Below are positions 8,304 to 10,968 of a stretch of 64,000 bases of DNA, piece by piece. The position numbers and the translations under genes are program-made. Below the pieces are notes generated by a model. The model was not told the DNA's origin and made no database searches. It was given only the letters and a program-made list of their open reading frames with translations. The stretch's first letter is position 1. The number at the start of each line of letters is the position of its first letter. The stretch comes from Nitrospinaceae bacterium (GTDB lineage: Bacteria > Nitrospinota > Nitrospinia > Nitrospinales > VA-1), in assembly GCA_029261655.1 (NCBI GenBank), contig JAJDAY010000030.1, positions 4,068 through 68,067 on the forward strand, given 5' to 3'.

Positions 8304-9080
8304 TCATCGGGGGGAAAGCATGGCCACCGTCAACATTCGGCCTGTTGTTCCCTCGCGGCGGTAGGAGAAAAAACGTTCCACCTCGCAGAAAGTGCAAACC
8401 CCGGTTTTTGAAATGTTTTCAGGTTCAATTCCGGCCGTTATGGCATCCTCCCGGTTGGCAGAAAATAAATCGAGCATGAATTTTCCCGACGGCAACGGCT
8501 TTATAAGTCCCGCCCGATCGGGATAAAGTTTTTTGAAGGGTTCAATGCAGTCCGCACCCACCTCATAACAGCACACATCTATGCCCGGCCCCATTTCCGC
8601 CAGTATATCCCTGGGGTCGCATCCATAAAGATTTTGCATGGCCAGGATGGTTTTGGAAATTACTTTCAGCGCCGTGCCTTTTCTTCCCGCATGAATCACT
8701 CCGGTCACATGCAGGCGGGGGTCATAAACAACAATGGGGATGCAGTCAGCCGTCAAGACCCCGATGGGCCTGCCTGCCAGCCGGGTGACGATCGCATCGG
8801 CGGGAGTATCAGCAATCCGGGCTGAGGATGCGGAAGCGCTTTTCAAATCATAAACCGCGTCTCCGTGAACTTGCCGGACCAGAAATACCTCTTCTTTGTT
8901 CATCCCGATGGACTGCAAAAACCATTTTATGTTTGAACGTGTGGAAGGGTTCCCGGTGGAAAAATCCAATACGCCCGTTGTGCCATCTTTTAGTTCATGG
9001 CTTCTGGGACTGAAAGCGTGGGCCAGGCCAGGTTGGCTTTTTAATGGACTTATTGGGTGCAAATGGGGGGGTGGTTTCAT
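8304..9080 (-). CDS. pgeF: Peptidoglycan editing factor / YfiH-type laccase-domain protein
   Basis: Motifs QVHG, ADAIVT, TADCIP, IHAGRKG, GPGI..CCYEVG, CTFC and FFSYRR. Confidence 0.92.
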   Translation of the reverse strand: MKPPPHLHPISPLKSQPGLAHAFSPRSHELKDGTTGVLDFSTGNPSTRSNIKWFLQSIGMNKEEVFLVRQVHGDAVYDLKSASASSARIADTPADAIVTRLAGRPIGVLTADCIPIVVYDPRLHVTGVIHAGRKGTALKVISKTILAMQNLYGCDPRDILAEMGPGIDVCCYEVGADCIEPFKKLYPDRAGLIKPLPSGKFMLDLFSANREDAITAGIEPENISKTGVCTFCEVERFFSYRREGTTGRMLTVAMLSPR

Positions 9081-9300
9081 GGAAAAGGGTGTTTTTTTTA
9101 AATTTTTATTTTATTGTGAAAAAATGGGCATCCGCCGTTTTCCCGGCCCGTTTTTTTTGAAAATTTGTCAGCGTGCCGACCAGCCAGTATACACGCGGGT
9201 TTCAGGAGGGTATGAAAAATCCATAAGAACGGTAAACGGTTGACCGCCGGGACCGCGCACTGGTTTCATACCGGGGTAGCGTTTTAATGTCAATATTTTC

Positions 9301-9328
9301 TTGACTTTAGCCCCCTATGGAATAAAAT
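9301..9328 (+). promoter_or_regulatory. Predicted sigma70 promoter of the histone-like gene
   Basis: TTGACT (9301-9306), 16-nt spacer, TAAAAT (9323-9328). The -35 is half of the palindrome GTCAA-N7-TTGAC (9289-9305). Confidence 0.6.
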
Positions 9329-9397
9329 ATTTATATTATCCTTTGAGCGCTGAAGCAAATGTCTTTTTGGGATTATCAAGGCTAAAAGGAGATCTTG

Positions 9398-9646
9398 ATG
9401 GCAACCAAGAAAAAAGCAGCAAAGAAAAAAGTAGCAAAAAGAAAAGTAGCTAAGAAAAAAGTAACGAAGAAAAAAGTGGCTAAGAGAAAACCAGCAAAGA
9501 AAAAAGTGGCTAAGAAAAAAGTAGCCAAGAAAAAAACAGCAAAGAAAAAAGTGGCTAAGAAAAAAGTAGCCAAGAAAAAAACAGCAAAAAGAAAAGTAGC
9601 AAAAAAGAAAACCAAGGCGAAAGCAAAAAAAAGAGCACGCAAATAA
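9398..9646 (+). CDS. Histone H1-like lysine-rich nucleoid protein (HC2/AlgP-tail type)
   Basis: RBS AAGGAG then ATG 9398. 82 aa of K(K/R)K(V/T/P)A pentapeptide repeats with no acidic residues. Confidence 0.85.
   Translation: MATKKKAAKKKVAKRKVAKKKVTKKKVAKRKPAKKKVAKKKVAKKKTAKKKVAKKKVAKKKTAKRKVAKKKTKAKAKKRARK
9492..9588 (+). repeat. Perfect 45-bp tandem duplication within the 15-bp repeat array of the histone-like gene
   Basis: cagcaaagaaaaaagtggctaagaaaaaagtagccaagaaaaaaa occurs at 9492-9536 and 9537-9581, with a partial third copy. Confidence 0.85.
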
Positions 9647-9741
9647 CCGAAAGTTTTCTGTTCAATCACTTAAATTTTAGTAACCAATCACAATCCCGAA
9701 AATTGGTTTTTTTTGTTTCAGCGCTCAAAAAACCTTTACCT

Positions 9742-10968
9742 TCAATGTGTTTCTTTTCCTCCCTCTGAAATAATCAAATAGATCCCTTTCAAATATTCAG
9801 CCTCTTTAAATGTGACCGGATGGTCCATCGCATGGCCTGTTTTGTCGGTTTCCTTATAATATTTTCCAGCCGATCGTATTCCTGAAAACACTGCGCGGAA
9901 AAACTCTTCTGCCGATACCTGTCTTGAACAGGATGCCGCAAAAAGGAGTCCGCCTGGGCGTGTCAGTTTCGCTCCAGATTCGGCCAGCCTCTGGTAAGTT
10001 GCAAGTGCCTTTGCCTTTTGTTTCTTTTTTACCGCAAAAGCCGGGGGATCGAGAATGACAATATCAAAGGAAGCTTTTCGATCCCGCAATTGTCTTAAAG
10101 CGTGGAAGGCGTCTCCTTCGATCTGTTGAAATTCGTTTTGCCCCGGTTTAATTGCGGGAAAATTCAATGAAAGATTGTCCCGCGAAGTTTTAAGAGCAAG
10201 CGGGCTGGAATCGATTTCCAATACGGATTGGCATTTACCTGCCAACGCATACACGGAAAATCCGCCCGTGTAGCTGAAAACATTCAAGACGGATTTATCC
10301 CTGGCCAGTGGTCGAATGCGCTGCCGATTTTCCCTTTGATCTAAAAAAAATCCCGTTTTTTGTCCCTCCAATACATCGACCTCGAAGAACAATCCATTCT
10401 CTCTGAAACATACAGCGGAATTGAGCCGGGGACCGAACAGGATCTGGCCTTCTCTAAAAGAACTGATCTTCTCGATAGCCGTCCGGCAGTTTCTGCTGAG
10501 CCGCAGGACGCATCGCTGGACAGGCAGAGTGCTCGCCAGCGAATCAAGAAAGTCGGCAAGGTAGGGAACCCACGCCGCCGTGTATAATTTTAATACAGCG
10601 GTGTCCTCATATCGGTCGAGAACCATTCCTGGAAAGCCGTCATTTTCACCATTGAGGACGCGGTAGCCGCTGGTTCCCTGATTATCCAGCGAACTTCTAA
10701 GCGTCAGGGCCTTTTGCAGTCGGTCTTCAAAAAACCGGGCGTCGATATTTAGAGGCGTTCCCCATTGCAGGATTCGCAACCGAATATCTGAAAATGGATC
10801 ATAAAATCCGATGGCCAGAAACTTGTTTTTAGAAGTGTAAATAATACCGAGATCGCCCGGATTCCCCTCTTTTGGAGTTTGTCCCAGTATCTGGTAATCA
10901 AACACCCAGGGATGACCTTTTTGTATTTTTGCCTGCAATGTTTTTGAAACCTGAAACTTGATCATCAT
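9742..10968 (-). CDS. RlmI-like class I SAM-dependent rRNA methyltransferase (PUA + MTase)
   Basis: Motifs GHPWVF, NGENDGFPG..LDRY, GQKTGFFLDQRENR, VLNVFSYTGGFS, ILDPPAF, ASCS and EAEYLK. Confidence 0.9.
   Translation of the reverse strand: MMIKFQVSKTLQAKIQKGHPWVFDYQILGQTPKEGNPGDLGIIYTSKNKFLAIGFYDPFSDIRLRILQWGTPLNIDARFFEDRLQKALTLRSSLDNQGTSGYRVLNGENDGFPGMVLDRYEDTAVLKLYTAAWVPYLADFLDSLASTLPVQRCVLRLSRNCRTAIEKISSFREGQILFGPRLNSAVCFRENGLFFEVDVLEGQKTGFFLDQRENRQRIRPLARDKSVLNVFSYTGGFSVYALAGKCQSVLEIDSSPLALKTSRDNLSLNFPAIKPGQNEFQQIEGDAFHALRQLRDRKASFDIVILDPPAFAVKKKQKAKALATYQRLAESGAKLTRPGGLLFAASCSRQVSAEEFFRAVFSGIRSAGKYYKETDKTGHAMDHPVTFKEAEYLKGIYLIISEGGKETH

Follow-up and report, generated by a model that had tools for sequence, protein, structure and literature searches.

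Organization of the locus

The locus lies on the forward strand of a 64,000-nucleotide stretch of Nitrospinaceae DNA, the whole of which we call the window. It comprises a promoter, a leader, a gene for an 82-residue lysine/alanine-rich protein, and a 3′ untranslated region (UTR), followed by a convergent gene. The features to which we refer throughout are the following:

9301–9328, + strand: sigma-70-type promoter, TTGACT-16-TAAAAT, 10 of 12 matches; the sole promoter-like site found in 9000–10000 (promoter scan)
9342–9359, + strand: helix 1, 5′ arm (sequence, inverted-repeat list and fold; kept, with covariation, in 47 of 49 aligned loci)
9364–9374, + strand: helix 2, 5′ strand (by eye; a 6-pair helix is placed here by RNAalifold on ten relatives)
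9381–9387, + strand: helix 3, 5′ strand (by eye; weakly supported in the genus of the window)
9386–9391, + strand: Shine–Dalgarno sequence AAGGAG, near-invariant across the phylum (alignment columns)
9386–9410 region, + strand: start-codon hairpin predicted by RNAalifold, 5 bp, 9393–9397 with 9406–9410, the ATG (9398) in its 8-nt loop
9398–9646, + strand: coding sequence of the 82-residue protein (open reading frame; stop codon TAA, 9644–9646)
9675–9681, + strand: helix 3, 3′ strand (by eye)
9692–9702, + strand: helix 2, 3′ strand (by eye, RNAalifold and pair counts)
9712–9729, + strand: helix 1, 3′ arm (sequence, inverted-repeat list and pair counts), with a T8 run, 9707–9714, at its 5′ side
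9742–10968, − strand: convergent gene for an RlmI-like SAM methyltransferase, whose stop codon lies 12 nt past the 3′ arm; syntenic in relatives, with a conserved 3′ flank seen in the alignment

The profile search assigned the neighboring genes to DUF6178, Cu-oxidase_4 (YfiH/PgeF-type), the RlmI-like methyltransferase and a transglycosylase. Transcription is predicted to start at about 9335–9337, 5–7 nt upstream of the 5′ arm of helix 1. The same promoter architecture was found in all three relatives scanned, and in the four loci scanned the end of the −10 box is 13–16 nt from the 5′ arm, which places the predicted 5′ end inside or adjoining the helix. Immediately before the −35 box, relatives of several families keep, as judged by eye, a block rich in A and T with TCAATATT (9286–9300), which may serve as an UP element or as the site of a regulator. 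The divergent intergenic region 5′ of the promoter also contains an inverted repeat (A6-TGGGC / GCCCG-T6, 9119–9156, 16 nt between the arms) that is terminator-like on both strands, yet no gene ends there.

The coding sequence is made of 15-nt (five-residue) repeats, of which the repeat finder detected 13 copies at 15-nt spacing. With a GC content of 0.30–0.35 and an AT skew of about 0.8, it is approximately 60% A, as A-rich as had been noted in the original prediction. Its length differs widely among relatives, in whole 15-nt units, and runs of N occur within the repeat-rich coding sequence in several assemblies (L021, L032 and L086); the gene assembles poorly and changes rapidly in length. 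The same prediction described the product as histone H1-like. This designation stays below threshold, since neither Pfam HC2 (PF07382; 17.2 bits, cut-off 40) nor NCBIfam NF038053 (12.9 bits, cut-off 80) was reached by the protein, and the likeness is compositional only.

The 23 bases from the Shine–Dalgarno sequence to codon 5 (9388–9410) are invariant or nearly so, synonymous positions included, in the 49 rows of the alignment described below. RNAalifold predicted the start-codon hairpin in all ten long-leader and all 21 short-leader sequences analyzed, with zero variation; because no position varies, this hairpin has no covariation evidence.

Complementarity between the leader and the 3′ UTR in the window

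Three nested helices can be drawn between the leader and the 3′ UTR. Helix 1 pairs 9342–9359 with 9712–9729 (18 bp, one G-U); across an internal loop from it, helix 2 pairs 9364–9374 with 9692–9702 (11 bp, one U-G), and helix 3 pairs 9381–9387 with 9675–9681 (7 bp, one G-U). The promoter, the three helices and their G-U pairs had all been predicted previously, and the sequence, the repeat list and the promoter scan located every one of them at the positions proposed. Helix 1 is the longest inverted repeat of the list (18 nt, 94% complementary, 352 nt apart), and a search of the 3,136,073-base genome with its 18-mer matched only the two arms at zero or one mismatch, the eight further matches having three mismatches each. 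By eye, a local hairpin (9705–9712 with 9727–9734) that would hold the 3′ arm in its loop is also possible; it is kept within the genus only.

Folding of 9335–9735 had been proposed on both strands. The + strand gave a minimum free energy (MFE) of −79.4 kcal/mol (z = −3.98), a value that none of 100 shuffled sequences equaled, and the corresponding structure includes helix 1. This part of the proposal was sustained; nevertheless, helices 2 and 3 were absent, supplanted by local pairings, and the − strand folded almost as well (z = −3.63), so that the fold of a single sequence cannot name the strand. As far as these modeled structures go, the window sequence alone cannot say whether the inner helices are real.

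Conservation and covariation of helix 1

When 41 genomes, that of the window and those of 40 relatives, were searched at the DNA level, 40 gave a match. We read 13 of these loci, and 12 showed both arms in the order promoter, 5′ arm, gene, 3′ arm and convergent RlmI-like gene, while the thirteenth ends in a run of N inside the coding sequence. Using the 23-base Shine–Dalgarno/start motif with one degenerate position, 67 loci were recovered from a species-level genome collection; 62 of them carry Nitrospinota-type labels, which identifies the window as Nitrospinaceae DNA, and the other five are labeled uncultured bacterium, Nitrospirota, Nitrospirae, Burkholderiales and Thermoproteota. The alignment was built from the window and 48 of the 67 loci (49 rows), leaving out 19 that were cut too near the motif or contained N. 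Both arms align cleanly over the 49 rows.

In this alignment, 89.5% of the 875 cells of helix 1 pair, in comparison with 83.4% when partners were shuffled (observed value reached in 0 of 500 shuffles), two-sided changes are present in 10 of the 18 pairs (44 cells versus 11.7 expected, 0 of 500 shuffles), and the covariation score is 0.172 versus 0.080 for shuffled partners, which reached it in 0 of 500 cases, and no more than 0.086 for slid ones, although these shuffle statistics overstate the support, given that related genomes are not independent. When the partners were slid by 1–3 columns, pairing fell to 30.1–47.4%. The double changes are spread over different clades and over columns 38/805, 40/803, 42/801, 47/796, 50/794 and 52/792. 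Compensatory examples include A-U to G-C at 38/805 and 50/794, A-U to U-A at 47/796, and C-G to U-A at 40/803 and 42/801 (one locus each).

The core pairs of helix 1 are present in 47 of the 49 rows, and its length, 18 bp in the window, ranges from 12 to 22 bp elsewhere. One of the two rows that lack the core is the Burkholderiales-labeled locus, where a lysine-rich gene bears the ribosome-site/start motif but has no arms and unrelated flanks. The other is the Thermoproteota-binned contig, in which a Nitrospina-type leader is joined to an unrelated 3′ side and which is probably mis-binned or chimeric. The covariation test on orthologous flanks that had been suggested thus returned both pairing and compensatory changes over 49 loci, with shuffled and slid partners as controls. 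The complementarity between leader and trailer is real and has been kept across Nitrospinota by compensatory changes, and we consider the structure itself very probable.

Strand on which the pairing is selected

An inverted repeat that brackets a gene, with a short palindromic core in each arm as seen in the window, could also be a DNA-level feature, such as two operators of one protein, a pair of repeats around an invertible segment, or the termini of a mobile cassette. A DNA-level repeat should accept both single transitions equally. The single-sided changes, in contrast, are strongly asymmetric: we counted 35 G-U or U-G cells and, by eye, only five A-C cells in the homologous rows, and four of the five A-C cells belong to terminal pair 52/792, at which pairing frequently stops. 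By our count, interior G-U pairs represent at least a dozen separate lineage events, as opposed to one interior A-C, and helix 1 in the ten-sequence set has ten G-U and two A-C cells. This excess of G-U over A-C points to selection on the + strand transcript, and we conclude that the pairing is selected as RNA on the coding strand. The original prediction had drawn the same conclusion from the G-U pairs of the window, and both the covariation and the 35 to 5 count bear it out.

Other observations also argue against a DNA-level function. The arms are unique in the genome and belong to no repeat family, they keep one orientation relative to the promoter and the RlmI-like gene in the 12 loci read with both arms, and none of the four neighbor genes tested is a recombinase. 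The palindromic core is gone in most relatives, and the candidate of two palindromic operators was dropped for this reason. Taken together, we regard an explanation at the level of DNA as highly improbable.

Inner helices and the Shine–Dalgarno sequence

RNAalifold on the ten long-leader loci recovered helix 1 (18 pairs) together with helix 2 (6 pairs). In this set, 80% of the helix 2 cells pair and two-sided changes are found in four of its six pairs; for the structure as a whole, 93.8% of the cells pair versus 39–55% for slid partners. Between genera the sequence of helix 2 is quite unlike while its complementarity is kept, as judged by eye. The prediction that leader and trailer pair in nested fashion is therefore upheld by the covariation of helix 1 in the 49 loci and of helix 2 in the long-leader clade. 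Helix 3 was absent from the consensus of the ten long-leader sequences, and its 3′ partner is mismatched in the two nearest relatives of the window. In two relatives of other genera, all three nested helices were present in both the MFE and the centroid folds (z = −6.60 and −5.24), with a helix 3 analogue at the same place but of different sequence, ending 5 nt upstream of an unpaired Shine–Dalgarno sequence. A Nitrospina-type short-leader locus showed a long-range helix that starts from the first transcribed nucleotides (z = −5.31).

The proposal that the innermost helix gates translation through the Shine–Dalgarno sequence was not supported by these data. In the window, helix 3 overlaps this sequence by no more than 2 nt; its partner is altered in the nearest relatives; and the Shine–Dalgarno sequence is unpaired in the folds of the two relatives. 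The 2-nt overlap and these two folds also speak against a 3′ UTR motif that pairs with it, as in icaR. An anti-Shine–Dalgarno role of 9339–9344 was considered and dropped, given that the motif is not kept in four of the seven close relatives read. In the predicted structures, the Shine–Dalgarno sequence and the A-rich coding region would stay a large open loop.

Ends of the transcript

No U-run follows the 3′ arm, as would be seen if the long-range helix were an intrinsic terminator; an A-run follows instead, and no terminator-like site was found in the scan of 9000–10000. In two lineages (a congener and a Nitrospina-type locus), same-strand terminator-like sites are situated 26–30 nt past the 3′ arm, which is consistent with transcription through the arm. 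In two related genomes of one clade, a strong terminator-like hairpin separates the stop codon from the 3′ arm (scan, partly by eye), and in another clade a hairpin and a U-run follow the stop codon (by eye). In lineages with such a hairpin before the arm, many transcripts might lack the 3′ arm. In the window, the T8 run immediately before the arm likewise counts against its presence on the transcript. Selection for pairing on the + strand is itself evidence that both arms meet.

Among RNA contigs from relatives, one of 188 nt stops at 9715 and another of 160 nt reaches 9732, although contig ends prove nothing. The sequencing-run search gave shares of 0.05–0.07 in RNA libraries and of 0.22 in one run of unknown kind; the Logan contigs obtained from four runs were short and for the most part represented low-complexity matches of other organisms, and none spanned the stretch.

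The terminator-like hairpins that follow the stop codon and precede the arm in some lineages raise the alternative that this arm is part of a small RNA of its own, encoded on the same strand just downstream of the gene terminator and acting on the leader in trans. A review describes IcaZ, encoded downstream of S. epidermidis icaR, which provides a precedent for this arrangement. However, no promoter-like site was found between terminator and arm in the relative that was scanned, and in the window helices 2 and 3 have their 3′ strands within the 65 nt from the stop codon to the arm, and no terminator was found past the arm (scan of 9000–10000). We regard a small RNA acting in trans as very unlikely.

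A possible end-to-end clamp

Conserved structure clusters at both ends of the transcript, and the ribosome site stays open. The explanation that we prefer, and to which we give about an even chance, is that this structure forms an end-to-end clamp that protects or processes an unstructured, 60%-A mRNA. According to this model, approximately the first 50 nt of the mRNA would pair with the 3′ UTR through a long outer helix and one or two shorter nested helices; the duplex would bury the 5′ end, blocking 5′-end-dependent attack by RNase E/G or RNase Y, and would act as a stable stop for 3′ exonucleases. The clamp could thereby set the lifetime and the mature ends of a nuclease-prone mRNA, as does the 5′/3′ UTR interaction of Bacillus subtilis hbs.

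The genome encodes RNase III (249.9 bits, above the cut-off), two RNase E/G homologues and RNase Y, whereas the profile search gave no match above the cut-off for RNase J. The RNase Y gene is split over two contig ends (C27:3–1121 and C31:149685–150236, covering model positions 4–376 and 331–514, respectively), and the two contigs probably abut.

The duplex could instead be made for cutting by RNase III, either maturing the ends, as in the precursor stems of rRNA, or destroying the mRNA, as in icaR. Helix 1 (18 bp) and helix 2 (11 bp), placed across an internal loop, and the presence of an RNase III gene with the score given above are in agreement with this idea, but in many lineages the perfect stretch of helix 1 is just 12–15 bp, which is short for a substrate of this enzyme. 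We consider cleavage by RNase III an unlikely purpose of the duplex, even though the review reports that the 5′-3′ pairing of icaR creates such a substrate.

Comparison with known 5′ UTR–3′ UTR interactions

Long-range helices that join two transcript ends are familiar from the processing stems that flank rRNAs, which enclose a non-coding RNA and are removed by RNase III. At the locus described here, the coding strand of a single gene carries one complementary segment in its leader and the other past its stop codon, which is one of the marks of cis 5′ UTR–3′ UTR interactions. A 2021 review lists RNAIII, icaR and hbs as bacterial examples. The original prediction spoke of an undescribed cis system. 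This appears to hold for the element itself, as the Rfam scan (E up to 10) gave three hits, all under the gathering score (E = 0.63–6), and a search of titles and abstracts found no publication on the element for Nitrospina histone-like proteins or UTRs or for histone H1-like mRNA stability; it does not hold for the class, to which hbs, icaR and RNAIII already belong, along with hok and aapA. The element is apparently an undescribed case of a rare but known kind of interaction.

The closest resemblance is to hbs, which encodes HU in B. subtilis. In the account of Braun, Durand, and Condon (2017, PMC5737220), a 14-bp interaction between its 5′ and 3′ UTRs, proven by mutation, restrains endonuclease cleavage in the leader and slows a 3′ decay pathway while the ribosome site remains free. 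Each of the two mRNAs encodes a small and abundant protein that coats DNA, and in each the leader pairs with the 3′ UTR of the same mRNA and leaves the ribosome site free, but hbs has one 14-bp helix, located 3′ of two 5′ hairpins and just 5′ of the terminator, whereas the Nitrospinota element has two or three nested helices that start within a few nucleotides of the predicted 5′ end. There is no homology of sequence or of protein (HU versus a lysine-repeat protein), and a function that is proven for hbs is only proposed here. According to the 2021 review, functional 3′ UTRs, that of hbs among them, are not conserved in close relatives; the Nitrospinota element, in contrast, is kept across a phylum.

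In Staphylococcus aureus icaR, as reported by Ruiz de los Mozos (2013, PMC3868564) and in the review, the 3′ UTR also pairs in cis with the leader, giving a duplex that, like the one proposed here, is a potential substrate of RNase III. In these sources the icaR 3′ UTR bears an anti-Shine–Dalgarno motif that blocks initiation, whereas the conserved Nitrospinota helices do not include the Shine–Dalgarno sequence. In S. aureus RNAIII/hld, a 7-bp helix between the 5′ and 3′ ends, whose role is described in the review as unproven, shares with our element, as do the rRNA stems, the joining of two transcript ends.

With only a handful of cis 5′ UTR–3′ UTR interactions known in bacteria, conservation throughout a phylum with compensatory changes would rank among the best comparative arguments that end-to-end pairing of an mRNA is a selected and durable device. 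Like the hbs interaction, it is found on an mRNA for an abundant protein that coats DNA, which may point to a solution that recurs in genes of this type. The element would also give a defined post-transcriptional element to the Nitrospinota, major marine nitrite oxidizers for which few genetic tools exist.

A local hairpin at the 5′ end and a possible switch

In the type I toxins hok and aapA1, the full-length mRNA folds back so that its extreme 5′ end is paired with its 3′ end (fold-back inhibition), and an alternative 5′ hairpin forms when the 3′ partner is absent. The Nitrospinota element resembles them in its end-to-end pairing and may do so in an alternative hairpin: in 21 of 21 short-leader loci, inspection by eye revealed a local hairpin of 7–10 bp that begins at the predicted start and shares its 5′ strand in part with the outer portion of the 5′ arm. 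The invariant core of that arm lies in the hairpin loop, and the stem varies by lineage with complementarity kept (by eye). RNAalifold on the 21 short leaders returned the invariant start-codon hairpin only; the local hairpin was not recovered because the register of its 3′ strand differs between lineages. Unlike hok and aapA1, the locus has no toxin open reading frame and no evident antisense RNA gene: the product is an 82-residue basic repeat protein rich in lysine and alanine, and the sole promoter-like site in 9000–10000 is on the + strand, which does not correspond to a hok/Sok-type pair of toxin and overlapping antisense RNA.

Since the local hairpin and the clamp share nucleotides, they cannot both be complete, and protection by a static clamp may be too simple a view. 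The hairpin could be either a co-transcriptional intermediate that is invaded through its loop by the 3′ arm, or one state of a true two-state switch. In the latter case, the mRNA would alternate, as in hok, between the 5′-terminal hairpin and the clamp, depending on whether the 3′ arm is present as a result of read-through or 3′ trimming; the two forms would differ in translation or decay, and synthesis of the DNA-coating protein would be timed in this way. We consider this possible but doubtful. The local hairpin with the core of the 5′ arm in its loop in every short-leader locus and the terminator-like hairpins upstream of the 3′ arm in some lineages favor it, and in a relative of another genus (L023:1950–1990) a copy of the first 8 nt of the 5′ arm lies further downstream and offers an alternative partner to the distal half of the 3′ arm. 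The resulting hairpin, read by eye, is followed by T6 and is terminator-like; its 12-nt loop is longer than the scanner allows, so that the terminator scan does not list it. Against the switch, the local hairpin was missing from the RNAalifold result, the Shine–Dalgarno sequence is not obviously hidden by either conformer in the folds of three relatives, and in the long-leader clade, to which the window belongs, the local hairpin has no more than 4 bp (by eye).

In its widest form, which we hold as tentatively, the switch would make a bistable mRNA of the whole phylum, in which the 3′ arm invades the loop of the hairpin and loss of the arm, by 3′ trimming or upstream termination, flips the mRNA back. 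If true, this mRNA would couple synthesis of a DNA-coating protein to transcript completion or growth state, and a logic like that of hok would serve a housekeeping chromatin protein rather than a toxin.

A separate small hairpin was observed by eye in the part of the Nitrospina-type 3′ UTRs that precedes the 3′ arm (alignment columns ~722–735). It has 5–6 bp and a 4-nt loop, no U-run comes after it, and its stem changes on both sides between loci.
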